Shown here: positions 15,468 through 55,602 of the stretch, one piece after another | Layout of the letters: each line of letters starts with the position of its first letter | How positions within the stretch are numbered: the stretch's first letter is position 1 | Virus record (IMG/VR): IMGVR_UViG_3300037755_000581 | Location: 2,984-66,983 of that record | Direction: 5' to 3' (one strand) | DNA length: 64,000 bases | From: a virus | Taxonomy: Duplodnaviria > Caudoviricetes | The notes under the pieces: model-generated | Database searches by the model: none | What the model saw: the letters and a program-made list of their open reading frames with translations, nothing else | What the model was told of the DNA's origin: nothing | Position numbers and translations under genes: made by a program

Positions 15468-15848
15468 GTGCTGTCCCGGATCCTCGGGATCGGCCTGGTG
15501 CTGAGCCTCGCCGCGAATGCTGGCACTGCCGCTCTCTACTACCGAGCTAAGGCCGAGACCCAATCGACCGTGGCCGCTGTGGCCGCCGGTGCCAACGAGC
15601 GGCTCACTCAGTCACTTAGTCACCAAGCCACTGCGTTCGAAGAGCGTGTGGCCGAGCTTACCCGCCGCTTGGAACTTAGTAACGAAGTGACTAAGGACGC
15701 ACAGGAGCGGGCCTACAACGCAACTGCAGAACTTCGCACCTTCCGGGAATTACTGCGCTCGGAGAGTACTGCCGACCCTGCGTACGCGGAGTGGGCCGCG
15801 GCCGAGCTCCCCGCCGGCGTGGCTGAGCGCCTGCGAGGGCTCCAATGA
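15468..15848 (+). CDS. Inner-membrane spanin (Rz-like)
   Basis: N-terminal TM helix, periplasmic coiled coil, C-terminal WAAAELPAGV typical of i-spanins. Confidence 0.7.
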   Translation: MLSRILGIGLVLSLAANAGTAALYYRAKAETQSTVAAVAAGANERLTQSLSHQATAFEERVAELTRRLELSNEVTKDAQERAYNATAELRTFRELLRSESTADPAYAEWAAAELPAGVAERLRGLQ

Positions 15849-15976
15849 GAAAGCCGCAGATTCGCCGGAGCGACATGTTTACGTGGCGCCCGGTCCACAA
15901 TGAATTAGGTACTGCTTGGTTGTGGTGGTTCTTCCAGAAAGGAGGGAACCGTGGCTGGTGGACGCGTTGGATTTAA
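15845..15976 (+). CDS. 43-aa Trp-rich cationic peptide (not in the ORF track)
   Basis: ATGA-coupled to the i-spanin gene; MRKPQIRRSDMFTWRPVHNELGTAWLWWFFQKGGNRGWWTRWI. Confidence 0.4.
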   Translation: MRKPQIRRSDMFTWRPVHNELGTAWLWWFFQKGGNRGWWTRWI

Positions 15977-16718
15977 GTACGGAGAGCGGTACTCGCCAGC
16001 GCCGTTCCAACTGTCGGTAGCCGCCTCCCAAGTCACCGGTTGGCGGTGGCGCCGTATTTTCGGCATGAATCCCGACATCGATACTGGGCAGGAAGACGTG
16101 TGGGCCGCCGGGGGCACCCGTTTGCTCCCTACCGCGGCGGCCACGTGTTCGGTCGTGTCGACGAGCGCCAATGACGATGGTGACCCGGTCGGAACTGGAG
16201 CGCGCACGGTAACGATAGAGGGGTTGGACGCGAACTATGACGAGATAACCGAAACAGTAACGATGAACGGCGTCGGCGCTGTGACCACAGTGCAGAGCTT
16301 CCTGCGAGTGAACACGGCTTCAGTCGCGACGGCGGGGTCTGCGGAAACGAACGTCGGAAACATCTCTATCAGTATCGGCGGCAATATTCAGGCTTACATC
16401 GAAGACACTGAGGGGCACGCGCACTTGGCGCTCTATACCGTGCCGCGGAACCATACTTGGTTTGTCACAGAGTACATTTTGACGACGGGGCGGCAAAGCG
16501 CCACCGCCGACCTCCAGTTTTTGGGCCAGGTCAAGCACGGTGGAGTTTGGCACTCGATCGAAGATCACTTCCTGTACCAATCCGTTTACATCAACTCAGG
16601 GTTCGTGCAGGTAATAGAGGAAACGCAAGAGTTTCGAGTCCGGGCTGCGTCTAACACTGACAGCCTCGTGGGGGCGGCGTGCGTCGCTGGCTACCTCGTA
16701 AACAACGATCATTTATGA
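15951..16718 (+). CDS. Conserved phage protein, probable virion beta-sandwich
   Basis: 255 aa; AAAGGAGG ribosome-binding site; FGMNPDIDTGQEDVW...GTGARTVTIEGLDA pattern. Confidence 0.55.
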   Translation: MAGGRVGFKYGERYSPAPFQLSVAASQVTGWRWRRIFGMNPDIDTGQEDVWAAGGTRLLPTAAATCSVVSTSANDDGDPVGTGARTVTIEGLDANYDEITETVTMNGVGAVTTVQSFLRVNTASVATAGSAETNVGNISISIGGNIQAYIEDTEGHAHLALYTVPRNHTWFVTEYILTTGRQSATADLQFLGQVKHGGVWHSIEDHFLYQSVYINSGFVQVIEETQEFRVRAASNTDSLVGAACVAGYLVNNDHL

Positions 16719-16796
16719 ACATAGAACTTACCAAAGTAGCCGTGCTGGTGACATCTATGTTACTGGTGGGTCGCTCCGCGGCCCCTGGGAGCGCCG

Positions 16797-17063
16797 ATGA
16801 TAGGTCATAGGCTATTGGCCGCCACTGCCGCGATAGGCTTTGGCCTATCGGGCTGCGCCAAGCCACTCGTGGTGACTGAACCAATAGAGGTTCAGATCGT
16901 CCGGTATGAACCGGTTCCGGTTCCCGAGGTTCTCCTAACCCCGTGCAGAGTCACCCTGAGTGACTTAAACACCAACCAGGATCTCGAGCTCGCGCTCGCT
17001 GACGCGCTGCTCGAACTCCGAAGATGCTCCGCGGATAAGGACGCAATCCGGGAGCTCGAGTGA
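16797..17063 (+). CDS. Outer-membrane spanin lipoprotein (Rz1-like)
   Basis: Signal peptide with lipobox LSGC, Pro-rich linker (EPVPVPEVLLTPC), C-terminal helix with CSADK. Confidence 0.75.
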   Translation: MIGHRLLAATAAIGFGLSGCAKPLVVTEPIEVQIVRYEPVPVPEVLLTPCRVTLSDLNTNQDLELALADALLELRRCSADKDAIRELE

Positions 17064-17359
17064 TCCCAAAGACATTCCAACTCGGCGGGCGCACCTGGCG
17101 CGTCAAGCGTGGCGTCAAGTCGAAGAGATGGTACGGCCTAACGCAGTCGCACAACTGCGTCATTAAACTGTCGACCTTGAACAAGACTCCGGAGGCGGAG
17201 CTGCATACGTTCTACCACGAGCTGGTTCACGCGGTCGGCTTTACCATGGGATGGAATCTCCTGATCAACGACGAGACGAAGGTCGATGCGATGGGTGGCC
17301 TGTTCGCGCAGGCTATGAAGACGGCTACCGGCGTGTCCGCCAAGCGCACGAAAAACTAA
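17060..17359 (+). CDS. HExxH metallopeptidase-like protein
   Basis: 99 aa, FYHELVHAV motif. Confidence 0.5.
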   Translation: MIPKTFQLGGRTWRVKRGVKSKRWYGLTQSHNCVIKLSTLNKTPEAELHTFYHELVHAVGFTMGWNLLINDETKVDAMGGLFAQAMKTATGVSAKRTKN

Positions 17360-17397
17360 GACTCGCGCTACATAAAAAGCTAGTTTGTAGCGGACGG

Positions 17398-17452
17398 ATC
17401 GTTAACTGGAACGGCCTAACTGCCTGAAAAGGTTCGACAGTATCGTTAACTG
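17398..17452. repeat. Direct repeat ATCGTTAACTG (two copies), candidate integrase arm-type sites
   Basis: Copies at 17398-17408 and 17442-17452; partial TAACTG at 17417-17422; immediately left of the att core. Confidence 0.55.
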
Positions 17453-17458
17453 ACCAAC

Positions 17459-17506
17459 GGACTTTTAATCCATTGGTCGCTGGTTCGATCCCAGCACGGC
17501 CCACCA
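17459..17506 (+). mobile_element. attP: attP core: 3' 48 bp of a tRNA-Lys(UUU)
   Basis: GGACTTTTAATCCATTGGTCGCTGGTTCGATCCCAGCACGGCCCACCA = anticodon loop, T arm, 3' acceptor strand and CCA; no 5' acceptor strand or D arm upstream; 232 bp from the integrase stop. Confidence 0.85.
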
Positions 17507-17548
17507 GTCTCGGGGGGCACGTTGTCCGCTAGATTGGAGGCGTGTCCG

Positions 17549-17737
17549 CTATCGGCGGCGACGTTCGATCTCTAGCGCTCGGCGTTTCTGTTTGTCTTTG
17601 GTCAGGGAGGACATGTGCTCCCTGATCTCGAGCAGCCGGGCGTCCAGCCGCTGGCGCTCTTCTTCGAGCATCTTCTGCTCGTAGCACAGATATTCTAGCA
17701 GCCGGGTGCGGTAGGTTTTTTCGGTGTTTGCTTCCAT
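17549..17737 (-). CDS. Hypothetical coiled-coil protein
   Basis: 62 aa, directly after the integrase stop codon. Confidence 0.45.
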   Translation of the reverse strand: MEANTEKTYRTRLLEYLCYEQKMLEEERQRLDARLLEIREHMSSLTKDKQKRRALEIERRRR

Positions 17738-18751
17738 TCACTCGATAGCGCCGTGGCTCCCCAGCTCAGCAGGCTCGTCAGGATCATTACGGAGCGTATG
17801 CAACCAGTTGGTGGGTTCGACAACCTTAGCGCGGCGATAGAGTGCTAGCAACCCGTGCCCACCGGTTTTGTGATCAGATTCGCCCTTGGCACGAATGTCG
17901 TGGAAGTGGAACGACTCCCCGGTCTTCAGGCCGAGCTTCTTGCGCAGGCGGCGCATAGCGCTCGCCATGGCCCATTTGGTCACTGGGTCACCGGACCCAT
18001 TGGTGAACAGTCGTTCGGCGCCCGGAGCGCGAGTCGCGGCCCGCCGAACGAAGAAACGAAGATCGTCGTTCCAGCGGATGATCTTGACCTTGCCGGTCTT
18101 CGACTCCTCGATCACGATCCCTTCGTCGTGGATCACGGAGCGCGGAAGGGCTCGCGCCTCGCCCGGGCGGAGCTCCATGAGGTAGACGCCGGCGATCACA
18201 TCCTGGAGCCACTCAGGAGCAGCGGCGAAGTGACTGAGGAACTCGGGGTGGCGAGGGTAGCGATCGCGGGGCTTGACCTTGTTGCGGCGGATGCCGCGGG
18301 TGGGATCGACCTTGCAGCGGCCGTTGCGAATGCCGTACTGGAAAACCGTGGACAGGCAGGCGGCCTCCTTGTTGGCTACCGAGGGGGCTTTGCGGACCCC
18401 CGCCTTGGGGTCACCCCTGCGGCGCTTCTCGAGCAGCTGGGCAACCTGGCCGGGCGTGAGCTCGTCTGGCTCCATGTGACCAAACTTCGGGCGCAGGGTT
18501 CGCTTGATGTAGCCGCGGTAGTCAGTCTTGGTGTTCTCGGCGAGCTCATCCACCCCGAAAAGAAGGTAGTCGTCGAAGAGATCCGATAGGAGGCGGCCGC
18601 CGGGCTTCTTAGCTTTGGCGAGCGCTTCGTAGAGCGCGGACTCGCCGTCGGCGATACGGGAGAGTTTCTTGGATTTGCGACGGGCATCGACATAGCCAAG
18701 GTCGAGGTGGTAGGCGCCGTGGCGCTCGAATACCCCTTTAGGTAGTTGCAT
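17738..18751 (-). CDS. int: Tyrosine recombinase/integrase
   Basis: LRPGE (R), KTGK (K), FHDIR (HxxR), GH and LY near the C-terminus; adjacent attP and excisionase. Confidence 0.85.
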   Translation of the reverse strand: MQLPKGVFERHGAYHLDLGYVDARRKSKKLSRIADGESALYEALAKAKKPGGRLLSDLFDDYLLFGVDELAENTKTDYRGYIKRTLRPKFGHMEPDELTPGQVAQLLEKRRRGDPKAGVRKAPSVANKEAACLSTVFQYGIRNGRCKVDPTRGIRRNKVKPRDRYPRHPEFLSHFAAAPEWLQDVIAGVYLMELRPGEARALPRSVIHDEGIVIEESKTGKVKIIRWNDDLRFFVRRAATRAPGAERLFTNGSGDPVTKWAMASAMRRLRKKLGLKTGESFHFHDIRAKGESDHKTGGHGLLALYRRAKVVEPTNWLHTLRNDPDEPAELGSHGAIE

Positions 18752-18944
18752 CCCAGCGTGGCTCCGCCTTCTGCTTGCTTGCTCGGCCGATCAGTGTAGC
18801 AGTGATCGCGTCGACGGTGGTAAAGGGCGCCCCATTCAATCGACGAAAAGGGATGCCGGCGCTCTTGAGGTGTCTGATCAGAGCTGCTCTACTAGAAAGT
18901 TTTGCGAGCTTCAGAAGCTCGTCTTCGTTTACGATCGGCCCCAC
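18738..18944 (-). CDS. Excisionase-like small DNA-binding protein (DUF4224-like)
   Basis: 68 aa; ELLKLAKLSSRAALIRHLKSAGIPFRR...PFTT; overlaps the integrase start. Confidence 0.6.
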   Translation of the reverse strand: MGPIVNEDELLKLAKLSSRAALIRHLKSAGIPFRRLNGAPFTTVDAITATLIGRASKQKAEPRWDATT

Positions 18945-20607: not shown

Positions 20608-20912
20608 GTCGCGGCTTCGAGCTTCTTGATCGCGTCCGACAGCCGCTGAACCACGTGCGACTTTCTACGTTCGGCCGCGTCGTTCCAAAGAACCATGTCG
20701 ACTTCGTTACGAAAGCCTAGGGCTTTCATCGAGCCGCGTACCAGGCGCTCGAGGCGCCCGAATTCGCGGTAAGGGTCGCTGCCACTAAACCGCAAAGCAC
20801 CCGCCAAGCAATAGCAGGCGTTGTCGGCGCCGTAGCTGACGTAGACGCCCTGAGTCCACCCTTTGCGGATAAGGGTGCGGGTCTTCTTCAGTGTGTCGAG
20901 TAACTTGCTCAT
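20604..20912 (-). CDS. Small early protein, CxxG family
   Basis: Start MSKLLDTL; WTQG...CYCLAGAL...WND motif. Confidence 0.55.
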   Translation of the reverse strand: MSKLLDTLKKTRTLIRKGWTQGVYVSYGADNACYCLAGALRFSGSDPYREFGRLERLVRGSMKALGFRNEVDMVLWNDAAERRKSHVVQRLSDAIKKLEAAT

Positions 20913-21172
20913 TTGATCTCCTTGAGGAAGTCTTTCGCTTCCTTCGTGATGGTCCATCCGCGGCCGATTCGTAACAGCCCGCGCACTGCGCGACTTAGCT
21001 TATAGTCCATAGTCTCGAAGTGCTTTGTTGCCTCGGCATTCGGCACCTTGAGCAGGCGCACGTTGTATTCGTCGAGCACTACGATCGGAGTGTATTTGTG
21101 ACCCGGTGACTTAGTGACTCCGTGGACGATGTCGTACTCTCGCCGATAGCGGACAACGCGATAGTCACTCAT
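20909..21172 (-). CDS. Hypothetical protein
   Basis: 87 aa, coupled on both sides. Confidence 0.55.
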   Translation of the reverse strand: MSDYRVVRYRREYDIVHGVTKSPGHKYTPIVVLDEYNVRLLKVPNAEATKHFETMDYKLSRAVRGLLRIGRGWTITKEAKDFLKEIK

Positions 21173-21579
21173 ACAACCGGCTCCGGAGGGGCAAGTGACT
21201 TAGCGACCCAGTTACGGACCCAGAGCCACCGCTTCTCTGGTGTATACGCGAAGTACCAACCGTCGTCATTCATGAACTCGATCTCTTTGACGAGCGCCGG
21301 GGCGATGCCGAATGTCTCTCCGATCTGGTCGGCGTTCTCGGCGTTGAGCTCGCTCATGTCGATGCCGCGAGCAACTCCTACGGAACCGATCGCGCAGACT
21401 TCGCCCTGATGTTCGAGCTCGTCGGTAATGAGGCGCTTTACGGGCATCGCGTCGAGGACTGTGAGCATCTCGCGCAGGAACGCCTGGCCTCGTTTGCCGC
21501 GGATAGCGCTTGCCACTGCGCCGCGCCACATGATGAGGCCCCAGCCGCCGCAGTCGTCGCTGTATCCTGACCGGCTCAT
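21169..21579 (-). CDS. Conserved phage protein (MSRSGYSDD type)
   Basis: GKRGQAFLRE...VCAIGSVG...EIEFMND...RWLWVRNWV. Confidence 0.6.
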   Translation of the reverse strand: MSRSGYSDDCGGWGLIMWRGAVASAIRGKRGQAFLREMLTVLDAMPVKRLITDELEHQGEVCAIGSVGVARGIDMSELNAENADQIGETFGIAPALVKEIEFMNDDGWYFAYTPEKRWLWVRNWVAKSLAPPEPVV

Positions 21580-34536: not shown

Positions 34537-34542
34537 ATAAGC

Positions 34543-34643
34543 CACTTAGTCACTGCGCGTCCGAGTTAACCGCTCGGTTGGCCTTTCTGCGCTGTGATCT
34601 TCTCGCCTAAAGCGAGGCAGCGCAGTCGCGCAGTGACTAAGTG
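34543..34643. repeat. 101-bp element with 17-bp perfect inverted ends and internal hairpins
   Basis: CACTTAGTCACTGCGCG (34543-59) pairs with 34627-43; inner stems CCGAG/CTCGG, CTGCGCTG/CAGCGCAG, CTCGC/GCGAG. Confidence 0.85.
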
Positions 34644-34645
34644 AC

Positions 34646-36373
34646 TCAGAGCTTGATGTTGAACACATACTCTTCGGTAGCGTCCCAGTCGATCTCGTAG
34701 TACGCGTCCTCGCCAGGATCGATGTCGTGGGCTTTTCGAATTGCTTCTTCCTCAGTCTCCGCTTCCACGATCACATCGCGATATGCCGGAATGCTGAAGA
34801 ACACTTTGTACTTTGCCATGGCGTACTCAGAATTCCTTCCCGCGTTGTCCCCGGAACCGCTCCACGAGCGTTTCTCGCAGGATTCGAACTTCTTCGAGCT
34901 CGTCGGCTTCGACTTCTTCACTGAGGTTCTCGTATCCGACGATCAGATCATCTAAGTAATAGATGACGTCGGCGGCTTCGCTGTCTGAGAGGATTAGCAT
35001 TCGATGACTCCGCGGCCTTCTTCGAGCAGCTTGGCCATTTTGTTCCAGCAGTGTTGGTCGAGGGGGTCCAACTCATGCCAACTGCTTACGCCGATGTCGA
35101 AGTAGTCGTTCGCGTCGACGTAAACCTGATAGAGCTCTTCACCGTTCATTTCGTGACTCCGTGATTAAGTGACTCAATCTTCTGATTCGTCGTCCTTGTT
35201 CGAGGCGTCTTCGTCGCATATGATCACGTCGCGTCCTTCGCGCTCGGCCGTTATGGCGGAGTCGTTCACGTGTAGGATGCCCTCGAGGTAGGCTTGAGCC
35301 TCGACTTCGGTCTTGAATGAACGGCGGTAAACTTTCATGTCTCGGTCTCGTACTCGTTCATGAATAACATCGGGACTCCGTTAGTTCGCGAGCTTGGCGA
35401 ATCAGGCCAGAAAGCGTGTCAACGGCGTCGTCACCACTCATTCCGTCGTCGTTGGTGCGCTCGTCGTATTCCTCGGCTGTTTCCATGCGTGCGATTTGAT
35501 CGATGAATTTTCTGAGCGCCGGGGCAGCGGCGATCAAATTCGCGTTCGCCGTTGCCTGATCGACGCTATCTGCGGCTTCGGTCTCTATGCCGGCTTCGAA
35601 TACCCGGGCGATGCCAAGAGCGCCGCGTTCCGCTGTTGATTTCGTGTGGATGGTGAGATTAGTTCGGTCCCAAGGTCCGGGCGTGTGCTTGGTCATTTAG
35701 TAGTACTCCATCGCGTGACATGTGGTCCAATCGGACCCCGTAGCCAGCAGCTCGAGGCGCGTTACACAGTCGACAGTTCGAAGCTCGTGTGTGCGGGTGT
35801 TTCGCATGAGCCATGACTTGACGCTCGAATAGCGAGTGATTCCGGATGATGTCCACAGCATTCGGTGACTCCGTTACTCTGCCGTTTCGTAATCGCCGCA
35901 ACAGTGCGGGTCGATATCATAAAAAGCATCGATGTCATCCTCGCCAGGCTCCTTAGCCCATTGCGGCGTAAGTCGCTCGAGACGCGCGAGGAAGTCTATC
36001 GGCACACCAGTAAGCATTTCGACTTCGTGGAACTCGTCCCAACAGGAATCGTATTCGTCCCCGAGCACCAAGAACTTGTCGGTCCGCGTGTCGAAGTACG
36101 CGAATCGGTAACCCGTGCCTTGGCCACGGAGGTCAATGAAGCGGATCATAGGCGCTCGCAGCGGCTCTCGATGATATCGATGCCGAGCAAAAAGCCGGGG
36201 TCCAGGAGCATTTGTAGGCATACCGCGCTGTCGAGGTATCCGTTCGGGCGAAAGTGTTCGAATGCCTCTTCTCCGCTCATGCCCTCTTCGAGAGCACGGT
36301 TAAAGGCGGCGCTGTATAGCGCTTCTTGGTCGACGACTTCGGCGTCCAACGTGAAAGCGTAGTAGCGATTCAT
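34646..36373 (-). other. Cluster of small acidic early genes (34646-34819; starts at 35000, 35149 and 35861; 35358-35696 MTKHTPGPW family; 35874-36149; 36146-36373)
   Basis: Several are preceded by the GGAGTCAC start motif; MTKHTPGPW N-terminus is a common phage family. Confidence 0.55.
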
Positions 36374-36401
36374 TCGGTGACTCCGTTGCGTAGTGACTTA
36401 G

Positions 36402-36935
36402 TTACTGACGTTTCAAATAAGCAATGGCCCGTTCGAGCCCTTCGACCGTATCGCCGAGTTTGCCGATGCCGGTATTGCAGTTGTCGCAGAGCCAACCGCG
36501 AAACTTTCCGGTTTCGTGGTTGTGGTCTAAGCACAATGCCCGTTTGTTGGGTAGCTTTTGGCACAGCTCGCATTGGGGTGGAGCCGGGTATAAGGGGCTA
36601 GGCAATCCTAGGCGTTGGCGGGCTTTTGCCAATTCGGTTTCTTTGTTCGTGTGCCGATAAGCGCGTCGGCTAGTGTTTGCTTGCATACGATTATTTTTGC
36701 CCCAGTTTCTAGCTCTGTTTTTAATGTTGCTTCCGTCGCGAATGTATTGTTTACGAGCTCGACAACGCGCGCAATCTACACAGCGTGTGTCAGTTGTGTA
36801 TCGGACGGATATGTGACCGCGGATACACGGGGCGCCGGTGAAATACCGAGCCAGGCCGGCCTGCTTTGCTTCAGACCTCGATACCAAATTCACAAGATCC
36901 GTCTCCGCGGGTTGGTGACCAAGGACAGTAGGCAC
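36402..36935 (-). CDS. Endonuclease VII-family HNH endonuclease
   Basis: RYFTGAPCIRGH...CELC...LDHNHETGKFRGWLCDNCN. Confidence 0.8.
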   Translation of the reverse strand: MPTVLGHQPAETDLVNLVSRSEAKQAGLARYFTGAPCIRGHISVRYTTDTRCVDCARCRARKQYIRDGSNIKNRARNWGKNNRMQANTSRRAYRHTNKETELAKARQRLGLPSPLYPAPPQCELCQKLPNKRALCLDHNHETGKFRGWLCDNCNTGIGKLGDTVEGLERAIAYLKRQ

Positions 36936-43711: not shown

Positions 43712-43837
43712 AGTGACTCCGTAATTTTCACAATGTAGAGATTCCCTCGCCAACGGTAGCCGATCACTCTTGTGTTCGTGCCGTTGTGCCAGTCAATTCC
43801 TTCGACGCGTGTGCCGAAGACGCGGGCGAGCCAGAAT

Positions 43838-44107
43838 TTAAGCTGCATTTTCAAGCCACTTGATGTGCGCTCGGACTTCGCGGATGACTGTGCTAACTGG
43901 GCGCGTGTGCGAATCGAAGAAAATATCTCTAGCGCCTTCGTGTCCGAAGAACCCGGAGACATTAAAGTCCTCATCATCGAGCATCGGTTCGGCGTAGTCG
44001 TCGAAATTGAGCTTGAATCCGCGGCGGCGAAACCACGGGTCAAGTCCGCAGTGGCCGGCGGCGCAGGTAACTGTGCCACATTTGGTCTCGTAGCCCCAGT
44101 GGCCCAT
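43838..44107 (-). CDS. Early protein, CGTxxCxAGH family (paralogue)
   Basis: MGHWG...CGTVTCAAGHCGLDPWFRRRGF. Confidence 0.55.
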   Translation of the reverse strand: MGHWGYETKCGTVTCAAGHCGLDPWFRRRGFKLNFDDYAEPMLDDEDFNVSGFFGHEGARDIFFDSHTRPVSTVIREVRAHIKWLENAA

Positions 44108-44361
44108 ACTTCAATTCTTCCTCCGCTGATGTGGTGTCAGGGCGTGTAACACGCGGAGGACGTTTTGCCAGCGCTCGATGAGCTGCTTTTTAGTTGCCAT
44201 AAATTACTCCAAAATGAGCCAGAGCATGAGGGCTGCGTCGATCAGTGCCAGCGCCGCACACAGCAGTAGCAATGGACGAAAAGTTCGGTACGGGTGATCC
44301 AGATCCGATATGCGCCGGCTCATGCCCAGGCGCCGCTCTGCGATAGCTTCTAAGTTAGGAG

Positions 44362-44751
44362 TCATTCGAGCACTGCTGTGCTGAGTCCGCGGGCTTTGGC
44401 AATTTCTTTGAGCCTTTTGATCCACGCGGTTGTGCCGTGAGCGAGATCGTAGTCGTGCGCGGATTGAAGGTTGGAAAGAAGTCCGATGTGATCGTATGAC
44501 AGCCCTGCTACGTTCATCTCTTCCGGGAACCGTTCGAAGAGGCCATTCACATCGGTTTCGTTATCGCCATTATGGTTGTCCATTTCTAAATTATAGAGAT
44601 GGTCCGGAATGAGGCAGCCGACAGCGCAACGAAGTGCCGGGTCTTCGGGGTGTCGGTAATAACACTTTCTGTCAGTGAGGGATCGGCTAGCCACGCCCTG
44701 CTTCAGTAAGAACGCGGTGGACTGGTCGAAGATCTGTTGAGCGGTAAGCAT
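44362..44751 (-). CDS. Early protein, CAxGCxIPD family
   Basis: LLKQG...CYYR...CAVGCLIPD...LQSAHD. Confidence 0.65.
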   Translation of the reverse strand: MLTAQQIFDQSTAFLLKQGVASRSLTDRKCYYRHPEDPALRCAVGCLIPDHLYNLEMDNHNGDNETDVNGLFERFPEEMNVAGLSYDHIGLLSNLQSAHDYDLAHGTTAWIKRLKEIAKARGLSTAVLE

Positions 44752-44761
44752 AGTGACTCCT

Positions 44762-45013
44762 TTAACGAAATACGTACGGCTGCCTTTCCATGTCAGGAGG
44801 GTAGTAGCCGTTGTTGCGGTCTGAATTTTCTTTGAGTCCCGCGGCTTTGAGTTCCTTATAGAGCTCGGTTGTGAGTTGCCGGCGGGGACCGGTGCCGCCA
44901 GCAACATAGGTGATATCGATGAGCAGTTGGGCTATATCTGCGCTCATTTCGAGTCTGTAAGTTGGCGGAGGTAACACAGGGGGTTCGGGTGGCAGAACGA
45001 TGACTTTGATCAT
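44762..45013 (-). CDS. Hypothetical protein
   Basis: 83 aa, GGAGTCAC start motif. Confidence 0.55.
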   Translation of the reverse strand: MIKVIVLPPEPPVLPPPTYRLEMSADIAQLLIDITYVAGGTGPRRQLTTELYKELKAAGLKENSDRNNGYYPPDMERQPYVFR

Positions 45014-45247
45014 GGTGACTCCTAGTAGAAAGTGGTGAGCTTCTTGCCGTTTGCTGTCAGAGTGATTTGGTAACCGTCGAACTCGGCATATATGCCGTCG
45101 CCAAAATAGGCTTGCGTTTTCATGTCAATGCCCAAATTACGCGAACAATGAGCGCGAACGCTGCGACGGTTACGAGCAGGACGAGCACGGTTAGTACGGC
45201 GAGCGGTGCCAGTACGAATGACGTTACGGCGTTTATCAGTTGGTGTT

Positions 45248-45628
45248 TCATAGTGATTTCGTGTCTAGGATCTCGTCACTAAGTGACCAAATGACTGCGA
45301 TTCCGCGCATATGTTCTCTCCACTCTTTGATGCTGTAGCGTCTAAGGGTGCGATCGTGCGCGAGTTGTAACTTGTCGATCAGTCTGGTATCGACGTTTAT
45401 GAGTCCGAGTTGCTCTCGGAACAGTTTCTCTTGGAGCAGATGTGTGGCAGGTCTGCCTTCTATGATGGGATCATAGAGCTCATCCGGAATGATGCAACCG
45501 AATGCACATTGTTCTCCGTCAAGTGCGCGATATCTGCAGAGGCCGTCGTTATTAATCGCGGCCCTGCCTTGTTTCAGCAGGTGAGCGGCGACTCGGTTGA
45601 AGACTTGTTGGTTGGTGAGTTGGTTCAT
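45248..45628 (-). CDS. Early protein, CAxGCxIPD family (paralogue)
   Basis: LLKQG...CRYR...CAFGCIIPD...LQLAHD. Confidence 0.65.
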   Translation of the reverse strand: MNQLTNQQVFNRVAAHLLKQGRAAINNDGLCRYRALDGEQCAFGCIIPDELYDPIIEGRPATHLLQEKLFREQLGLINVDTRLIDKLQLAHDRTLRRYSIKEWREHMRGIAVIWSLSDEILDTKSL

Positions 45629-45986
45629 GGCTTAGTGACTCCGTGATTGAAGAGTGACGCACAGCGGTCTTGAGCCCGGCTCGTAGGGCACAGCGGTGCA
45701 AGGCTTGGGTGTTACCGATACGGTGTAGATCATGATGCCGAGTACGAGCCATGTTCCGATTGTGAGGAGGCCAAGAAGAAGCTTGATGAGGGTCTTCATG
45801 ACTTGAGGAACCTTTCAAGTTCGTACTGCAACTCTTCGCGAGCCCGAATATCAACGTAGCTACTACCAAGGTGTTTGCCCATCTCACGGGCAATGATCCA
45901 TGTGATGTGGGAGGCAGAATTTTCGATTGCTTTGTGCATTTCGGTACGAGCGTAATCGAGATCTAAGGACATGGTGACTCCGTGAC

Positions 45987-46217
45987 TTAGAGCTTAGGAA
46001 GAAGACGATTCGTTTCTTCGTCGTACTGGATCTTGCTCAAGTAGATGAGCGCGCAAGCTGCGCGGAATGTTGGGCCCGAAGTCACTAAGTTACAAGGAAC
46101 TGATTTCAGGAGCTCGAGTTCGATGCGGTTTAAAGTTGTTCGGCCGCTGAGGAGACGTCGTCCTCGGACGCGTAGTGACTCGGGATTAAGTGACTCAGTG
46201 GGCATGAGATTTACCAA
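45987..46217 (-). CDS. Hypothetical protein
   Basis: 76 aa; its N-terminus is encoded by motif repeats. Confidence 0.4.
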   Translation of the reverse strand: MVNLMPTESLNPESLRVRGRRLLSGRTTLNRIELELLKSVPCNLVTSGPTFRAACALIYLSKIQYDEETNRLLPKL

Positions 46218-46246
46218 TAATGATGAAAAGACGTTCTGTCAAATCG

Positions 46247-46393
46247 CTAAGTACATTGATTTTAGGGGGCCTACGCTATTCTTTCTCCTGGAAAAGGTAT
46301 TAAGGGGTGTGGGGGGAAAACATTACGCGGGGGTGGTTAAGAGACTTTTCCAAGGGCGAAATAGCGTAGGCCCCCTAAAATCAATGTACTTAG
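46247..46393. repeat. 147-bp element with 34-bp perfect inverted repeats and a G-rich core
   Basis: CTAAGTACATTGATTTTAGGGGGCCTACGCTATT (46247-80) is the exact reverse complement of 46360-93. Confidence 0.9.
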
Positions 46394-46920
46394 AAATCGA
46401 ACCCTTCGCGCTTGCGCCATTCGGGTCCACGGCCATCGAGGCGAATGAAGCACGGCCGGCAATAGCGAAAAATACTACCAGGCGGGAGTACAACGTCTCT
46501 CGCGGGGAATTCGTGGCGGCAGTTGCTATTGAGTTGTCGTCCAGGTCCAGATTTTCCCCAGTTGTCGCAACGAATCATTGGCTCTGTTTCGTCGTTCGGG
46601 ATCCCGAGCTTGGTGCGACACCGGCCGCAGTATTTGACACGTGAGATTATCGGCGTGTTGCAGTCCCAACATGTGTTAACCATGCCACCCCATGGTGCGA
46701 CGCGTTGTTCCCGGCGCCGGCGGGTTTCGACGTAGTCTTGTGGAAAGCACCATACGTTGTTGGTGTGCAGTATTTCGGGGAACTTTTTGAGTGCGACGCG
46801 TTGCGCGTCGTTTGGTACGATTCCACTTCCATCTTTACGGTTGAAGCGCCACGCGTGTTCGAGACACCAATGGCTGCCGGGAAATGGTTTGAGCTCGCAG
46901 TTAAGGTGTAGGCACTTCAT
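46390..46920 (-). CDS. Cys/His-rich zinc-binding hypothetical protein
   Basis: SHWCLEHAWR, CWDC..CGRC, further Cys pairs. Confidence 0.55.
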   Translation of the reverse strand: MKCLHLNCELKPFPGSHWCLEHAWRFNRKDGSGIVPNDAQRVALKKFPEILHTNNVWCFPQDYVETRRRREQRVAPWGGMVNTCWDCNTPIISRVKYCGRCRTKLGIPNDETEPMIRCDNWGKSGPGRQLNSNCRHEFPARDVVLPPGSIFRYCRPCFIRLDGRGPEWRKREGFDF

Positions 46921-47346: not shown

Positions 47347-48129
47347 TTAGAAACGCCGAGCCAGTGCGACGGTCGCTTGCGCGCTCGCCTTCTGCTGCTC
47401 GGTGAGCTGCACCGGCGTCAAGAGCTTGTCGCCCTCGAAGCTGGCGGACTCGTAGATGACGCGCTTCGCGGCACGCGAGAAGCCATCGGCGTCCGGTGCC
47501 TCGGTCCCGAGTACGTCGCGCGCGATCGCGTAGCCGACGCCAGCTTGGCGAGCGAAGCCTTCGAGACGCGATTCTTTCTCCGTGTAGGACGGGTGGGAGT
47601 TCGCGTCTTGTCCGCGTGCGTGCGAGCGAGCGGCCCAGTTCTCGAGCTCGAACTGCGTGGTCGCAGCGTACACCGCGTTGCGCGTGGCACGATCGACCAG
47701 GAAGCGCTTGAACGCTTCGCCGTCCTTCTCGTTCATTGCGGTCAGCGTGTGCAGCAGCTCACGGCTGTGTTCGACCGCGTCGGCAACCAACGAAGCTTCG
47801 TCGGTCTTGTCACGCTCACCGCCCGGGTAGACGAGTCCGTAGCCGAACTCGGCGGCGGCCAACGCCTTCACCTGAACGTAGGCGATAAATGCCGGGATGG
47901 GTGAGAGGTAGAACTTACCGCCGGCCGAGCGCTTCCAGAAGTACTTCTCGGCGAGGTACTGCGGCAGGTTGGGCGACGACGCCGCCAACTGCTCCGTACG
48001 ATTCTCGTCGACGGCGTCCGGCACGTCGCTTGTTGAGCGCGGGCTTGCCATTGCGGCAACCATTGGCTCCTGCGACGGGATGTGGATTTCGCGCGGGTCG
48101 AGAGCCGAACCATTGCTTTGAGCGTTCAT
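47347..48129 (-). CDS. Hypothetical protein
   Basis: 260 aa, strong GC3 bias, GAGGAG ribosome-binding site. Confidence 0.7.
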   Translation of the reverse strand: MNAQSNGSALDPREIHIPSQEPMVAAMASPRSTSDVPDAVDENRTEQLAASSPNLPQYLAEKYFWKRSAGGKFYLSPIPAFIAYVQVKALAAAEFGYGLVYPGGERDKTDEASLVADAVEHSRELLHTLTAMNEKDGEAFKRFLVDRATRNAVYAATTQFELENWAARSHARGQDANSHPSYTEKESRLEGFARQAGVGYAIARDVLGTEAPDADGFSRAAKRVIYESASFEGDKLLTPVQLTEQQKASAQATVALARRF

Positions 48130-49941: not shown

Positions 49942-50038
49942 CTATCTCTACATATGTAGAGATACATCACTACAACTGTAGAGATAGATCAGCGGGTTGG
50001 CCAGACAGTCCATAACCATTTGGTTATGGACCATCTGG
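49942..50038. promoter_or_regulatory. Palindrome cluster at the head of the leftward operon
   Basis: TATCTCTACATATGTAGAGATA (49943-64) plus a third half-site at 49977-87; GTCCATAACCA-TT-TGGTTATGGAC (50008-31). Confidence 0.7.
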
Positions 50039-50048: not shown

Positions 50049-50116
50049 GACTGAGTCACTACGTCACTGAGCTCTTCGAGCTGAGTACGTAGTCACTCAG
50101 TCACTAAGTGACTACG
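50049..50116. repeat. Array of 8-bp (C/G)ACTNAGT units
   Basis: GACTGAGT CACTACGT CACTGAGC ... CACTCAGT CACTAAGT GACTACGC. Confidence 0.85.
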
Positions 50117-50278
50117 CTCCGCGTCCCAAGCGAGCGCGTGACTCACAGTCCACGCCGCGTAGTCGAGCGGCTCACCGACGTCGAAGTCGATGATCGGCTC
50201 GAGATAGACATTGAGCTCTACGAAGAGGGGATCGCCGGGGATATCAACAAGCAGGTATTGCATTGCATTCTCCTTGGG

Positions 50279-50497
50279 TTAGCTGAGGGCGATGCGAACG
50301 TAAACGTTGCGGGCGACCTTGCGCCCGCACCCGACGCACACGGAGTAGCGCGTGGCACCATGCATCAGCATCGGGCACGGCCATTCACGCTCGATGTAGC
50401 GCTCCACCGCGCTAGCGATGAGCTCGATGGGCATATCTTCCGGGGCGTCCAGCACCTGATAGACATCAGGGCGGGCAGTCTTCGCGAGGGTTAACAT
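50279..50497 (-). CDS. Hypothetical protein, first leftward gene
   Basis: 72 aa, AAGGAG ribosome-binding site, CPM.H..CVGC motif. Confidence 0.5.
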   Translation of the reverse strand: MLTLAKTARPDVYQVLDAPEDMPIELIASAVERYIEREWPCPMLMHGATRYSVCVGCGRKVARNVYVRIALS

Positions 50498-50740
50498 AGC
50501 GGTTGCTCCTTCGTCACTACGTGACTAAGTACTAAGGGCTAAGGACGCAGTGACTCAGTGGCAAGCGCCGCAGGCGCTCTTGAATTTGAGGCGCTGGAAG
50601 GTTCCTTAGACGAAAAACGAAACGAATCCTCTTCGGCCCGGAATCGCAAAAGGGGTCGAGGACTCGCGATCTTGACCGGGGGAGAGGAACACCGCACGAA
50701 CCTCTTTGAGTTCCTAAAATATAGGACCCTTAATTTTTTG

Positions 50741-50749
50741 TGATATAAT
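50741..50749 (+). promoter_or_regulatory. Extended -10 promoter (TGnTATAAT)
   Basis: TGATATAAT ends 7 nt before ATG 50757, so the mRNA is probably leaderless. Confidence 0.6.
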
Positions 50750-50756
50750 TCTGCAC

Positions 50757-51242
50757 ATGGAACTACAACAAGAAGCCCGATGTGAGGATTGTAACGCCCC
50801 CGTTAACCTGCCCCGCCGAGGGCGTCAGCCGAAACGCTGCCCGCCTTGCGCAGAAGAGCGCAACCGCGTTCGGTCCCGGAACCGAGCGCGCGCGGCGGAC
50901 TATGCCGTCGGCACGGACGCGTGGCGTATCTCAGCGGCCAATAACGTTATGGCCCGCGCCCGACGCGAGAAAGTTCCTTGCGACCCGGCGGCCGTGATGG
51001 ACACGCTCCGTGCGATGGCCACAACCTGCCCGATATTTGGCACCCCGTTCGAAGTCCGCCGCGGCCAGTGCGGCCCGTCCGCCGCTTCGCCGACAGTCGA
51101 CCGTTTCGTTCCGGCGAAAGGCTACATCCGGGGCAACATGGCCGTGATCTCATGGCGGGCCAACCGACTCAAATGCGACGGCACTCCGGCAGAACTCATG
51201 GCCGTTGCGGCGTGGATGGCTGTACACCCGTACAGTACTTGA
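50757..51242 (+). CDS. HNH-like endonuclease with an N-terminal zinc finger
   Basis: CEDC..CPPC, CPIFG, SPTVDRFVPAKGYIRGN...AN. Confidence 0.7.
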   Translation: MELQQEARCEDCNAPVNLPRRGRQPKRCPPCAEERNRVRSRNRARAADYAVGTDAWRISAANNVMARARREKVPCDPAAVMDTLRAMATTCPIFGTPFEVRRGQCGPSAASPTVDRFVPAKGYIRGNMAVISWRANRLKCDGTPAELMAVAAWMAVHPYST

Positions 51243-51298: not shown

Positions 51299-52060
51299 AT
51301 GTCCGACTCGACCGACCTCGTAACCCGCGCCGCCGATGCCCTTTCGATTGTCCCGAGCACCATGGTGACGGCCGCCAAGCAGCGCGCCGCTGGCGCCATC
51401 GAGAACTGCTGGAAGGCCTACCACGACGAAGACACCGGGCTGAAGCTGCGCGAGCAGCAGGCGGCCGTGGCCGGCGCCAAGGCCTCGAGCTACATCTTCG
51501 GCCTGGCCCAGTTCGCCGCCGAGGTGTGCCCTAAGAGATACCGCCCCGACGACGTGTTCACGGCGCTGTGCGCGTACGCGGAGGCCAAGCTCAAGGAGAA
51601 GCACGACGTCGACAACCTGAAGGAGGCGCTACCGTGCTGGGCCACGTTCAAGTCCAACATCGTGGGCGGCATGCGCGCCGGCTTGGATCCGCAGGAGTTC
51701 CCAACAGAATGGGAGTTCCGGAAGGCCGGCATGGAGGCCCGCATCTCCGTGATCGACACCAGGAACGCCGTGGCCGACCACCGCCTAGTCACTGAGTCAC
51801 CTAGTGACCAAGTGACTAAGTTGCCGACGCATCTCCGCATCGAACCCGTCAGGAAATTCATGCGCAGCACGTCGATCGCGAGCTCGCTGAAGCTCGTACT
51901 CGCTCAGTTGCTCGCGTCTGCGGACTACGTGAAGAAGGGCAAGGAGGCCGAGGCCGAGGCAATTCTGTCGGAAGCCAGCACGAAGTTGCTCGCCCTCGTC
52001 GACAAGCGCCGGGTCAAGGACGAGGCCACGCGCCTCGCGCTGGCGCCCCCGGAGAAGTGA
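51299..52060 (+). CDS. Hypothetical helical protein
   Basis: 253 aa, strong GC3 bias, AAGGA ribosome-binding site. Confidence 0.7.
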   Translation: MSDSTDLVTRAADALSIVPSTMVTAAKQRAAGAIENCWKAYHDEDTGLKLREQQAAVAGAKASSYIFGLAQFAAEVCPKRYRPDDVFTALCAYAEAKLKEKHDVDNLKEALPCWATFKSNIVGGMRAGLDPQEFPTEWEFRKAGMEARISVIDTRNAVADHRLVTESPSDQVTKLPTHLRIEPVRKFMRSTSIASSLKLVLAQLLASADYVKKGKEAEAEAILSEASTKLLALVDKRRVKDEATRLALAPPEK

Positions 52061-52129: not shown

Positions 52130-52183
52130 ACTTGTGCTGAAACCATAGGGGAAAGTTGCAGGCCGCAGTAAGCTTCGCGGCGA

Positions 52184-52660: not shown

Positions 52661-52938
52661 CCCCCAGACAAGAAGTCTACGCAGCGCTCGATTCAGAGCG
52701 CGATTATCAGGACAGCAGATGGGGGGCAACGCTCTCCGCAAACCGCGTACCCGGCCCCGGGCAGGAAGGAGGGGATCGCTCTCTCGACGAGTTCGTCCTC
52801 TACATGAAGGGCTACGTCGACGACGCAGTCGCCAAGGCTAGCCACTTCGTCGACAAGGTCGCGGTTCTGGACATCATCCGCAAGGTCACAGCGCTCGGCG
52901 TCGCTTGCATGGAACAACACGGAGCACCCCGCCGATGA
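52657..52938 (+). CDS. MazG-like all-alpha nucleotide pyrophosphatase-type protein
   Basis: SERDYQDSRWG...LDEF...IRKVTALGVACMEQHG. Confidence 0.5.
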   Translation: MTPRQEVYAALDSERDYQDSRWGATLSANRVPGPGQEGGDRSLDEFVLYMKGYVDDAVAKASHFVDKVAVLDIIRKVTALGVACMEQHGAPRR

Positions 52939-53144
52939 GCGATCGATTTCGTTTGCAGTACGTCCCGCTCGAGGTCGCCAACGCCGCCGCCATTCGCCAG
53001 GTGAAGTTGTTCGCCGACGACCTCGCCGAGTACCTCGAGGCTTTCGGCACTCCGAGCCGAGAGCTCAGTCTCTCAGTGACGAAGCTCGAGGAGGCTGTCT
53101 TCTGGGCGACGAAGCACTTCTCCGCTCCGGAGCGGCAATCATGA
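52935..53144 (+). CDS. Acb2/Tad1-like hairpin protein
   Basis: 69 aa from ATG 52935; PSRELSLSVTKLEEAVFWA. Confidence 0.6.
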   Translation: MSDRFRLQYVPLEVANAAAIRQVKLFADDLAEYLEAFGTPSRELSLSVTKLEEAVFWATKHFSAPERQS

Positions 53145-53530
53145 AGTTCCTCTGGGGCGACAAGGACGGCGGACCCGAGTCGAAGGTCTACGTCTGGGGG
53201 CTCGAGATCAAAAGCTTGTTTTCCGTGCTGGCGCTCAAGTTCGAGCTCGGGTCACGTGAGGCGTACCACTCGCACGCGTTCAACGCAATCTCGTGGGTGC
53301 TGAAGGGCGGACTGAACGAACACATGCTCGACGGGCCGACGAACTACTACGGCGCCTCGCGCACGCCAGTCGTCACCCGCCGCGCCACGTTCCACAAGGT
53401 GATGGGCCTCGGCAATCCGAGCTGGGTACTCACGTTCCGCGGTCCTTGGGCCAACACGTGGCTCGAGTTCCTGCCGAAGGCTAAGCGGTTCATCACACTA
53501 ACGCACGGCCGCAAGGAGATCTCCCAATGA
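53141..53530 (+). CDS. Cupin-fold protein
   Basis: YHSHAFNAISWVLKGG..E...FHKV...WVLTFRGP. Confidence 0.6.
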   Translation: MKFLWGDKDGGPESKVYVWGLEIKSLFSVLALKFELGSREAYHSHAFNAISWVLKGGLNEHMLDGPTNYYGASRTPVVTRRATFHKVMGLGNPSWVLTFRGPWANTWLEFLPKAKRFITLTHGRKEISQ

Positions 53531-53859
53531 TCGACCTCCTGATCTACAACCCGGTCACCGCGTTCTACGTGTGCTGGGTCTGTTACGTGATGACGATCGT
53601 GGCGAAGAAGCTCCGCAACGAGAAGAAGCTCACGCCGATTCTTTGGCTCTTCTTCAGCCCGTTCCTACTCGGCGTCGCCGTCCTCGACGTCGGACTGCAG
53701 ATAACCGCCGCATGGCTGCTAGGTGTTCCTCGCGAGTGGACACTATCGAAGCGTTTCGAGCGCTATCGGACGAGCGGCACCGCGAACCGGTGGCAGTTGT
53801 TCGTCGCGAACAACGTCTGTGGCAGTCTGCTGAATCCGTTCGAAGACGAGCACTGCTAA
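53527..53859 (+). CDS. Membrane protein
   Basis: Two hydrophobic segments; TLSKRFERY...LLNPF...HC motif. Confidence 0.55.
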   Translation: MIDLLIYNPVTAFYVCWVCYVMTIVAKKLRNEKKLTPILWLFFSPFLLGVAVLDVGLQITAAWLLGVPREWTLSKRFERYRTSGTANRWQLFVANNVCGSLLNPFEDEHC

Positions 53860-53883
53860 CCACTGAGGTTATACACAGCAGCA

Positions 53884-53892
53884 TGGTACAAT
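53884..53892 (+). promoter_or_regulatory. Possible extended -10 promoter
   Basis: TGGTACAAT in an intergenic gap; a similar TGGTATTCT lies at 57387-95 before the portal gene. Confidence 0.45.
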
Positions 53893-53927
53893 CCGCTCGC
53901 GTTGCATCTAGAGAAGGACCACAACCA

Positions 53928-55079
53928 ATGATCGGTAGTTTGATCGGCGCTTTCGTACGCCTCACGCAGCTCCAGAAGCTCGCCCAGAACGCAAAGGTGC
54001 AGGCGTATTACGCCACGGCGAAGGCCTGGTATAAGGCGCAGCCGCGCAAGATCCAGCTGGCCGTGGCCGCCGGCGTTGTTGTCGCGCTCGGCGTGGCATT
54101 CTTCGCGTGAAGTTTTTCTCCGGCGCCGGCATAATGAAGCGAAAACACGGCATCGCAGTTTTCTGCACGCTCTTCGGCGCGTTCGTCGCAATCAAATCCG
54201 GCGCGTCTCTCACCGAGTGGACGGTATTCGCGGCCGCCATGGTAGGAACATTCGGCGCGGCAGACGTCGCCGATAAAAAGCTCAACGGAGGCACGTACGA
54301 TGAACAGTCTAGCGACGGACGATCCCCGCCGAGCAATTGACCCCGAGCTCACCGTCGGCCAGATGTGCATGGCGGCGCTCGAAGATATGCTCACCGAGAA
54401 ATCTGACGAGCGGGTGGTCACAGTGCTGGCCGACGGCGGCGTCTATTTCTACCACGTGAAGTGTGTTGGCTATAAGCCGCCGTACCAGGCGCTTGACCCC
54501 GCCGCCGGCGAACTCAATTGGATGGGCCAGAGGCAGAACTAATGGACCTTTTCAGCAGACTTTGGGCGCTGGTCGCCGGGGCAGTGATCATCGCGGTGGC
54601 GGGTGTCAGCCTCGCCCCGACCCCGCATTCGGAAGCGCCGCAGATCACGGCCGCCATCGGCGTGATCTCCCCGTGCGGCATCTACGCCGTCATCACGATT
54701 CAGAGTGATGGCTCCGCTGTCGTGTACGACTCCACGAACGAGGCGCCCCCGAGCGTAGAAAAGACCGTTACTGAACTCAAACAAGAACAGCGGCACGCCA
54801 TCATCGTGCCGTGCCCCGCCGGAGTGAATTTTGGCCAAGAAAAAGAAGCAGCCTATACCGAAGCCCCGCACCGCCGAGGACACGACGCTCTCTGAGCTGC
54901 TCGAGCTCACGGCTCCCCCGCGGAACGGTACGACAGGCGTACACCTGACTGCCGCGCACCCTGCTTACATCCTGACGATTCAGGGCCCGGAGGCGCTGCA
55001 CATGGTAAGGCTCATCTTAGACTTTGTGGAGGCGCTCAAAGAGCGCGAACGAGAGAAGCTTGGCGACGCAAAGCGGTAA
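53928..55079 (+). other. Five small genes, three membrane-associated (53928-54110, 54107-54340 holin-like, 54300-54542, 54542-54895 signal-anchored, 54831-55079)
   Basis: Coupled overlaps and hydrophobic helices. Confidence 0.5.
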
Positions 55080-55602
55080 AGAACTGGCGAAGTATCTCGA
55101 GCCGTTGACGCAGATCCAACGGATCTACACTGAGTCGCGCCTAAAGGGGATGTCGAAAGTCGCCTCGGCGACCGCGGCCGGCATCACCGCGCCACACAAG
55201 AACGCCGGACGGATCGAAGAGAGCGCAGCCGTGAAGGAAGCCCTCCGCGTAGGTCGCGAGTTGCTCGCGACCGAGATCATGTTCACTCGGAAGAAGGCTC
55301 ACGAGCTCCTGATGGAAGCACACGCCAACTCGGCGACAGCCACCGAGCAGATCTTCGCCATCCGCGAAATGATTAAGTTGCACGGCGTCGCGGCGCCTGA
55401 AGTGAAAGAGCTACGTCACCAAGTCACTGGGAAACTAGAACACGAAGAGGTTAAGCGACTAAGTGACTCCGACCTCTTGCGCCTCGCCCGCCTGCCCGAC
55501 AACAAAATCCCTCAGATACTCGAGGGTGAATTCTCGATAGTGGACAATGGACGATCAGAAGCCCTCGCCGCCCCCAGCACCGACGAAGAAACCGCGCCGT
55601 AA
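55060..55602 (+). CDS. terS: Terminase small subunit
   Basis: Likely TTG start; helical HTH-like N-terminus, AIREMIKLHG; directly upstream of and overlapping terL. Confidence 0.65.
   Translation: MATQSGKELAKYLEPLTQIQRIYTESRLKGMSKVASATAAGITAPHKNAGRIEESAAVKEALRVGRELLATEIMFTRKKAHELLMEAHANSATATEQIFAIREMIKLHGVAAPEVKELRHQVTGKLEHEEVKRLSDSDLLRLARLPDNKIPQILEGEFSIVDNGRSEALAAPSTDEETAP

Follow-up and report, generated by a model that had tools for sequence, protein, structure and literature searches.

The DNA analysed here, a 64,000-nucleotide stretch of a tailed-phage genome (Duplodnaviria; Caudoviricetes) referred to below as the window, comprises bases 2984-66983 of the 66,983-bp IMG/VR record IMGVR_UViG_3300037755_000581 and contains, dispersed over more than 50 kb and mostly in the early region, short tandem arrays of the palindromic unit AGTSACT (S = C or G) repeated at a step of 8 bp. 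The arrays are real, periodic, palindromic and non-random, they are under purifying selection as DNA, and they are conserved in the clade to which the phage belongs. We propose, with a probability of about 0.5, that they are operators and roadblocks for a cooperative DNA-binding protein controlling the early genes; protein binding, the placement of dimers in an 8-bp step and transcriptional control as the outcome are what we infer from the arrays. Coordinates are window positions, and the statistics were run on the whole record.

Copy number, spacing and register of the repeat

AGTSACT occurs 32 times in the record, while first-order Markov simulations gave 5.6 ± 2.4 copies with a maximum of 15, and AGTCACT is among the most over-represented 7-mers (z = 11.5). 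The two-unit forms are present in 10 copies (AGTSACTNAGT, N being any base; 0.05 expected) and 8 copies, with expectations of 0.05-0.1. Two GTSAC cores are separated by 8 bp 17 times (0.22 expected) and by 16 bp six times (0.34 expected), and among the other distances up to 48 bp none occurs more than four times. With a position-weight scan, 20 arrays containing at least two in-register units were found. A literature search by motif string returned primer matches only.

An initial annotation of the window, made from the sequence alone, had described these arrays and proposed that motif count and 8-bp spacing be compared with a codon-preserving shuffle. When synonymous codons were shuffled and the intergenic DNA was left unchanged, AGTSACT dropped from 32 to 19.6 ± 1.9 copies and the 8-bp spacings from 17 to 7.2 ± 1.4, so that both motif and spacing are in excess over the controls; since the shuffle removes most of the intragenic excess, the intragenic copies exceed what the encoded proteins need. 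Every site that the annotation had listed is present at the coordinates given. In detail, 46083-90 is a single unit, the spacing of the units at 46174 and 46189 is 15 bp instead of 16, and the units at 50049-50116 form two sub-arrays that are out of register with each other rather than one run. Degenerate units (GCCAC, GTAAC, GCGAC and ATCAC) occur in several arrays.

Anatomy of the unit

For analysis of the unit, 109 array units from the phage and four of the relatives described below were pooled and oriented by the central base (C). The GTSAC core is preceded by A in 65 and followed by T in 70 of the 109 units, and the base midway between cores is free. Because the flanks are symmetric and the spacer base is free, the unit (A)GTSAC(T), 7 bp long and followed by one spacer base, is a genuine palindrome, and runs of units have dyads on both S and N, in agreement with their initial description as doubly palindromic. 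On the sense strand the array units read GTCAC in 68 cases and GTGAC in 41; both orientations are thus common, which argues that duplex DNA is recognised rather than RNA. Short head-to-tail units in fixed register are found in the phage and in its relatives, typically two to four units per array in the phage and up to eight in one relative. Palindromic units, or units in direct and inverted orientation, are also characteristic of the operator arrays of ribbon-helix-helix proteins.

Conservation in related phages

The genes that are referred to repeatedly below are the following.

15468-15848, + strand: Rz-like i-spanin gene, identified by family scan.
17738-18751, - strand: tyrosine integrase gene, at the distal end of a long leftward operon, identified by Pfam/PHROG scan.
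47347-48129, - strand: gene of a 260-aa (amino acid) protein, at the end of the first leftward operon.
51299-52060, + strand: gene of a 253-aa protein with an all-helical model and an array in its linker.
55024-55602: putative terS gene, so called from its position upstream of TerL and without a family match.

Relatives were reached through metagenomic homologues of the 253-aa and 260-aa proteins. Seven motif-bearing contigs were fetched, of which five are independent (L018; L019, nearly the same as L020; L021; L022, nearly the same as L023; and L026); all are partial contigs, and the independent ones differ from the phage at 49-80% protein identity. The initial annotation had made its case depend on conservation of the arrays in relatives, and arrays are present in all five independent contigs. 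L018-L023 all carry GTSAC arrays at the 8-bp step, with 7-14 such spacings per 11-15 kb, and L026, the most distant, has few units and a single 8-bp spacing. KPP25 and phiA008, two distant phages that share the genome layout, show no motif enrichment and no 8-bp spacing.

In the relatives the arrays are retained in the divergent intergenic region, whose DNA otherwise does not align, and they stand at equivalent positions inside terS and the 253-aa gene; the left unit pair of the terS array is invariant in L018-L020, and its sequence is present in L022/L023. In regions aligned by blastn, array cores are 97-100% identical compared with 77% overall, while isolated GTSAC pentamers (75-84%) are conserved no better than background. 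Third-codon positions within arrays are conserved at 15 of 15 sites in L018 and 21 of 22 in L019, against 62% elsewhere (Fisher p ~1e-3 and 6e-4). The synonymous shuffle, the conserved third positions and the persistence of arrays where the flanks no longer align bear out the earlier suggestion that selection acts on the DNA itself.

These data also bear on the view that the repeat has no protein-binding function and is either a self-propagating, microsatellite-like sequence or a set of microhomology cassettes shuffling small early genes, for which the repeated early-promoter cassettes of T4-type phages are the nearest known parallel. Slippage-like changes in unit number do occur: the linker of the 253-aa gene varies by insertions and deletions, with four units in the phage, 2+1 in L018 and 3+2 in L019, and an array of eight units in L022 (7531-7587) has six in L023 (7547-7587), a difference of exactly 16 bp between near-identical contigs from different data sets. 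The latter points to slippage by two units at a time and may indicate a functional super-unit of 16 bp (GTGACTGAGTGACGCA). Arrays also flank many small accessory early genes whose content varies among relatives. However, the conservation of synonymous sites contradicts the idea of a repeat that spreads by slippage and has no function; the palindromic core and these sites are strictly kept over 49-80% protein identity, the position inside terS is conserved, and slippage gives no account of a palindromic unit. We therefore regard this view as very improbable.

An exact scan of IMG/VR for three perfect units returned 15 stretches of 3-4 AGTSACTN units in unrelated viral contigs of lower G+C content, which are at most a lead. 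In L001, L002 and L012 a sigma-70-like promoter immediately precedes the array; in L006/L007/L013 and L011 the array comes just before a ribosome-binding site, that of L006 being ahead of a putative tail-sheath gene (by sequence alone). By blastp, no protein near the arrays in these unrelated IMG/VR contigs is shared with the phage.

Location of the arrays

The arrays and start-associated units of the window are listed below.

15605-15696: a three- to four-unit array and a two-unit array in the i-spanin gene (+).
21097-21212: three units within the gene of an 87-aa basic protein, 20909-21172 (-), and two units, one of them degenerate, upstream of its start.
34540-34648: two two-unit arrays, mutually inverted with about 70 bp between them, adjoining a tRNA-like element.
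35152-35176: array 5' of a 51-aa gene (start 35149), sense GTCACttaATCACggaGTCACgaaATG.
36376-36406: array 5' of a 75-aa gene (start 36373), sense GTCACtacGCAACggaGTCACcgaATG with another unit ahead.
43712-45021, - strand: three single start-associated units, GGAGTCAC(T/C)-ATG, at starts 43711, 44751 and 45013.
45274-45296: three-unit array where genes 45248-45628 (-) and 45120-45251 (-) meet.
45629-45655: start-associated array 5' of a 126-aa gene (start 45628), sense GTCAC..ATCACGGAGTCAC-taagcc-ATG.
45973-45991: two units 5' of a 58-aa early gene (start 45972), the proximal one fused to the Shine-Dalgarno sequence, sense GGAGTCACC-ATG.
46080-46199: one unit at 46080-90 and a pair spaced by 15 bp at 46174-99; on one side is a 147-bp inverted-repeat element, on the other the gene that opens the second leftward operon.
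50049-50116: two sub-arrays of 2 and 3 perfect units, 37 bp apart, overlapping the 3' end of a 56-aa early gene, 50093-50263 (-).
50510-50560: about six units, some degenerate, immediately ahead of the first leftward gene (start 50497) in the early/late divergent region, the last unit being followed by GGAG and then ATG.
51787-51821: four units (two GTCAC, then two GTGAC) in the 253-aa gene, encoding part of a disordered, length-variable linker.
55411-55470: inside the putative terS gene, two unit pairs in 8-bp register, the inner units having 32 bp between them.

Arrays are packed most densely at the early/late divergence, as had been noticed initially, with three arrays in 50049-50560 and the four-unit array at 51787-51821. 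The second-densest region, 45.2-46.2 kb, is the start of the second leftward operon; upstream of this region lie two strong terminators (47291-47162), HNH-like open reading frames (ORFs) and the 147-bp inverted-repeat element. In the early operons the arrays occupy short junctions just 5' of genes, and in the late genes (spanin gene, 253-aa gene and terS) they are intragenic.

Several other elements were observed near the arrays. A long inverted repeat with arms of about 34 bp around G-runs (46241-46398) lies between the HNH-like ORFs and the arrays of the second operon. A perfect hairpin with a 12-bp stem and without a U-tract (GGTCCATAACCA..TGGTTATGGAC, 49995-50035) follows the 50049-50116 arrays directly on the leftward transcript. 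At 50741-50759, an extended -10 element (TGATATAAT) ends 7 nucleotides (nt) before the ATG of a rightward HNH endonuclease gene at 50757, so that its transcript would be leaderless; this HNH gene sits between the divergent region and the 253-aa gene and is not at that place in L018-L020.

One possibility considered is that the arrays are pac sites, i.e., that TerS oligomers bind the units and packaging starts in the terS array. A conserved array of 2+2 units does lie inside this gene, upstream of TerL, and the TerL is of the Terminase_6 type and accompanied by a P22-like portal; phages of this terminase and portal type usually use headful packaging that begins at a pac site within terS or close to it. 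However, genomes normally have a single pac signal, and TerS boxes usually show a helical phasing from which an 8-bp step departs. In the phage there are about 20 arrays, most of which lie at the starts of early genes or in the divergent region, and the terS gene is assigned by position only: the location labelled terS in the initial annotation fits, but 55024-55602 has no family match. The packaging option raised there thus suits the terS array and leaves the others without explanation, and we give it only a slim chance.

Units fused to ribosome-binding sites

At seven starts (35149, 36373, 43711, 44751, 45013, 45628 and 45972) the ribosome-binding site and the last unit are merged into GGAGTCAC(T/C), 1-6 nt before the ATG; counted as (AC)GGAGTCAC at 3-8 nt from the start codon, the fused unit precedes at least nine early genes. 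A three-unit module, GTCAC-tta-ATCAC-gga-GTCAC-ATG, is found in the phage, in L018 and in L021, and near start codons the sense GTCAC prevails over GTGAC by about 17 to 3 (hand count).

The placement of GGAGTCAC units just before the start codons of early genes, the recurrence of the three-unit module at the ATG in L018 and L021, in the form GTCAC-taa-ATCAC-gRg-GTCAC-ATG, and the dominance of sense GTCAC near starts would all be expected if the repeat acted as RNA, its GUCAC units around the Shine-Dalgarno sequence either serving as sites of a multimeric RNA-binding protein or base-pairing with a small RNA of the phage, with control of translation as the result. Control of the TRAP or RegA type is a possible analogue, and another is the start-associated sequences of Cluster K mycobacteriophages, whose function is unknown: these are a motif that includes the ribosome-binding site and lies a few bases before the start of some genes (PMC3203893). 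The phage likewise has a conserved motif containing the ribosome-binding site a few nt ahead of the start codon in a subset of genes. Its sequence differs, however, and matches neither the Cluster K consensus nor the extended inverted-repeat partner; the upstream partners in the phage are further 8-bp units, and its start-associated unit is the last member of an array family that is also found far from starts.

Over all units, on the other hand, both orientations are common, and the eight-unit array of L022 is almost all GTGAC on the sense strand. A perfect palindrome would be superfluous for an RNA reader, and arrays also lie inside late genes on the other strand. As the sole explanation an RNA-level role is therefore rather improbable in our estimate, although such a role may be a layer added to a DNA-level one.

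Cooperative operator arrays as the favoured reading

The reading that we favour is that of operators and roadblocks for a cooperative DNA-binding protein. Units that are palindromic, that follow one another at a fixed step of 8 bp in mixed orientation and that form runs of 2-8 point to a symmetric dimer that contacts its neighbours. One such dimer would read each 7-bp palindrome, (A)GTSAC(T), on double-stranded DNA; neighbouring dimers, 8 bp apart, would touch and so coat runs of two to eight units cooperatively; and the coated arrays would switch off or time early transcription and also act as roadblocks. A function as operators or in timing is suggested by the positions of the arrays at the divergent region, at the head of the second operon, at early gene starts and at conserved intragenic sites in late genes. 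The role may be that of the immunity system of an integrase-carrying phage or that of an early-to-late switch. The polymerising DNA-binding system proposed initially remains the most economical reading of the strict palindrome, fixed step and mixed orientation.

Several results weigh against this proposal. Scanning the DNA around the arrays for sigma-70 promoters gave one site where chance predicts 3.4; sigma-70-like promoters are thus not recognisable beside the arrays. The fusion to the Shine-Dalgarno sequence, always as GGAGTCAC, goes beyond what a purely transcriptional model needs and hints at the added RNA-level role. No phage protein was identified as array-binding. Comparison of about 80 of the encoded proteins with Pfam or PHROGs detected no helix-turn-helix (HTH) or ribbon-helix-helix domain, although a small divergent ribbon-helix-helix protein is easily missed in such scans. 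The helical AlphaFold2 models of the 253-aa and 260-aa proteins (predicted local distance difference test score, pLDDT, 76 and 80, respectively) had no Foldseek match in the PDB, and VIA-align returned coiled-coil-like or generic helical-bundle matches only (Z at most 5.6). The 260-aa protein, moreover, is acidic (pI 5.5).

The binder may be encoded by the phage or by its host. The 253-aa protein (51299-52060), named as a potential binder in the initial annotation, seems a poor fit to this role: in L022/L023, where the arrays persist, the 11 kb fetched contain no homologue and the protein appears to be missing from the syntenic position, and the model of the protein shows no DNA-binding fold. 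Its residues 153-182 (pLDDT below 50) form the disordered, length-variable linker encoded by the array stretch, so that in this gene a regulatory DNA code would be overlaid on coding sequence. The 260-aa protein has a homologue in every motif-bearing relative fetched, and this phyletic pattern alone makes it a weak candidate binder. Its family has no match in IMG/VR and five loci in Joint Genome Institute (JGI) metagenomes. Neither of the two proteins has a Pfam or PHROG match or a homologue in the phage collection, and the ESM Atlas gave leads only below 0.85. Genes for proteins of 72, 56 and 65 aa come first in the leftward direction; as they are not conserved in the relatives, they are unlikely to encode the binder.

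In contig L025, where a homologue of the 260-aa protein (35% identical) is followed by a terminator, eight copies of a different repeat, TGTAGGAG/CTCCTACA, were seen farther downstream at 1520-1780, in both orientations and with one pair at 8-bp spacing. Co-variation of this repeat with the 260-aa homologue was considered and rejected: L025 retains a GTGAC pair, and GTGAC arrays are retained in L026, whose homologue shows 35% identity as well.

The phage carries an integrase, and Pfam/PHROG scans of about 80 proteins detected neither a transcription factor nor an annotated transcription regulator. A more far-reaching version of the operator reading, which we consider unlikely, is that an uncultured temperate clade has replaced control of the CI/Cro type by a protein of unknown fold that polymerises in 8-bp steps and gates early transcription together with translation initiation. 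Joint gating would follow from the fact that in many early genes the ribosome-binding site and the last unit are fused, and candidates for such a protein would be the conserved 260-aa family (47347-48129) or a small protein that escaped detection. Under the operator reading in general, the arrays, sharply defined and conserved in the clade, could serve as DNA bait for the regulator, which may represent a new DNA-binding family.

Genome organization and phage relatives

The two ends of the record (1-127 and 66857-66983) are identical, and because this exact 127-bp overlap makes the assembly circular, the genome is complete with a true length of about 66,856 bp and the start of the record is arbitrary. 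The G+C content is 59%. The contigs of a sediment metagenome were the single public run found to contain the DNA of this phage, with no RNA run listed for it, and this metagenome is probably the source. The late and structural genes are rightward, from about 50.7 kb across the record junction to about 17.4 kb, and include the ORF in the terS position, the Terminase_6-type TerL, the P22-type portal and the Rz-like spanin gene, for which the family scan agrees with the i-spanin label given initially. Two long leftward operons, mostly of small genes, extend from 50.5 kb down to the tyrosine integrase, which suggests a temperate lifestyle.

By TerL, the cultured phages that come closest are Aeromonas phiA008 and the Pseudomonas KPP25/phiR18 group (39-41% identity), and the best TerL match among about 50,000 phage genomes is 41% identical. 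Megablast found no cultured match, searches with TerL, capsid and primase gave distant matches only (at most 41% identity), and no TerL-related loci were found in IMG/VR or GTDB genomes. Judged from these sequence comparisons, the phage belongs to a lineage without a close cultured relative.

The most over-represented k-mers in the window are GAGCTC (178 copies, 59 expected), CTCGAG and CGAGCTCG (54 copies, 8.7 expected); the same bias is seen in L021 and may come from Glu-Leu/Leu-Glu codon pairs or from another DNA-level signal. The segment 30924-30992 (-) scores 39 bits with the Rfam tRNA model, and ARAGORN calls no tRNAs in the window. The 69-aa protein encoded at 52935-53144 matches only PHROGs of unknown function, and its homologues in L018-L020 carry a precomputed match to the Pfam Acb2/Tad1 hairpin; Acb2/Tad1 is a family of anti-CBASS/Thoeris sponges.

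Comparison with known systems

Stoperators of Cluster A mycobacteriophages (L5 gp71 type) comprise at least 20 dispersed sites, some in coding DNA, that block elongation as well as initiation of transcription of lytic genes, each being a single asymmetric 13-bp site that points in the direction of transcription and is recognised by a two-domain repressor acting as a monomer (PMC9283540). A stoperator-like network was among the options considered initially, and the part that stands is the dispersed, partly intragenic distribution of sites, coding DNA included, in an integrase-carrying phage with a temperate-type gene set. The anatomy of the sites does not agree: those of the phage are palindromic and tandem and occur in both orientations, which rules out membership in a stoperator system. 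No HTH family, as would be expected of a gp71-like HTH immunity repressor, was detected among the ORFs that were scanned against Pfam.

The ParG protein of plasmid TP228 binds, at its OF operator and parH centromere, 4-bp ACTC boxes separated by 4-bp spacers, i.e., with an 8-bp period; one dimer occupies each direct or inverted box, affinity grows with the number of boxes, and the DNA is coated cooperatively (PMC3130281). The phage arrays are alike in the 8-bp period and mixed orientation, but they are short, consist of the palindrome AGTSACT and lie at about 20 loci, whereas the ACTC boxes have AT-rich spacers and are confined to one locus by parFG. Neither a ParA-type ATPase nor a ribbon-helix-helix protein as in the ParG system was found in Pfam scans of the phage proteins.

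The match in anatomy to the parH and OF arrays (PMC3130281) and the dispersal of the sites, some of them intragenic, invite the thought that the arrays organise the genome, as centromere-like or nucleoid sites for a ParG-, omega- or ParB-like protein, as replication iterons, or as sites of a DNA-coating anti-defence protein. Yet no partition ATPase, ParB or initiator gene was seen beside the arrays, Pfam scans detected no ParA/ParB family, the arrays are not clustered at one locus as iterons beside an initiator gene would be, and the phage carries an integrase and no plasmid-prophage gene set. A genome-organising role is in our view improbable, while the data speak neither for nor against the anti-defence protein in particular.

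For the operator arrays that we favour, two further systems are instructive. The omega repressor of pSM19035, a regulator of plasmid copy number and partition, polymerises cooperatively on direct and inverted arrays of 7-bp heptads (WATCACW) at several promoters. Its core, ATCAC, is similar to GTCAC and occurs as a variant unit in the phage arrays, but the omega step is 7 bp and not 8. MetJ, a host metabolic repressor with a co-repressor, binds two to five tandem 8-bp metboxes (AGACGTCT) per operator, with one dimer per unit and contacts between dimers. Metboxes and phage units are alike in being 8-bp palindromic units with dyads at unit centres and unit junctions; they differ in sequence and in that the metbox dyads fall between base pairs whereas the phage dyads fall on a base (S and N). 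The phage arrays would then represent a rare natural case in which cooperative sites with an 8-bp step are distributed genome-wide rather than at a single operator.

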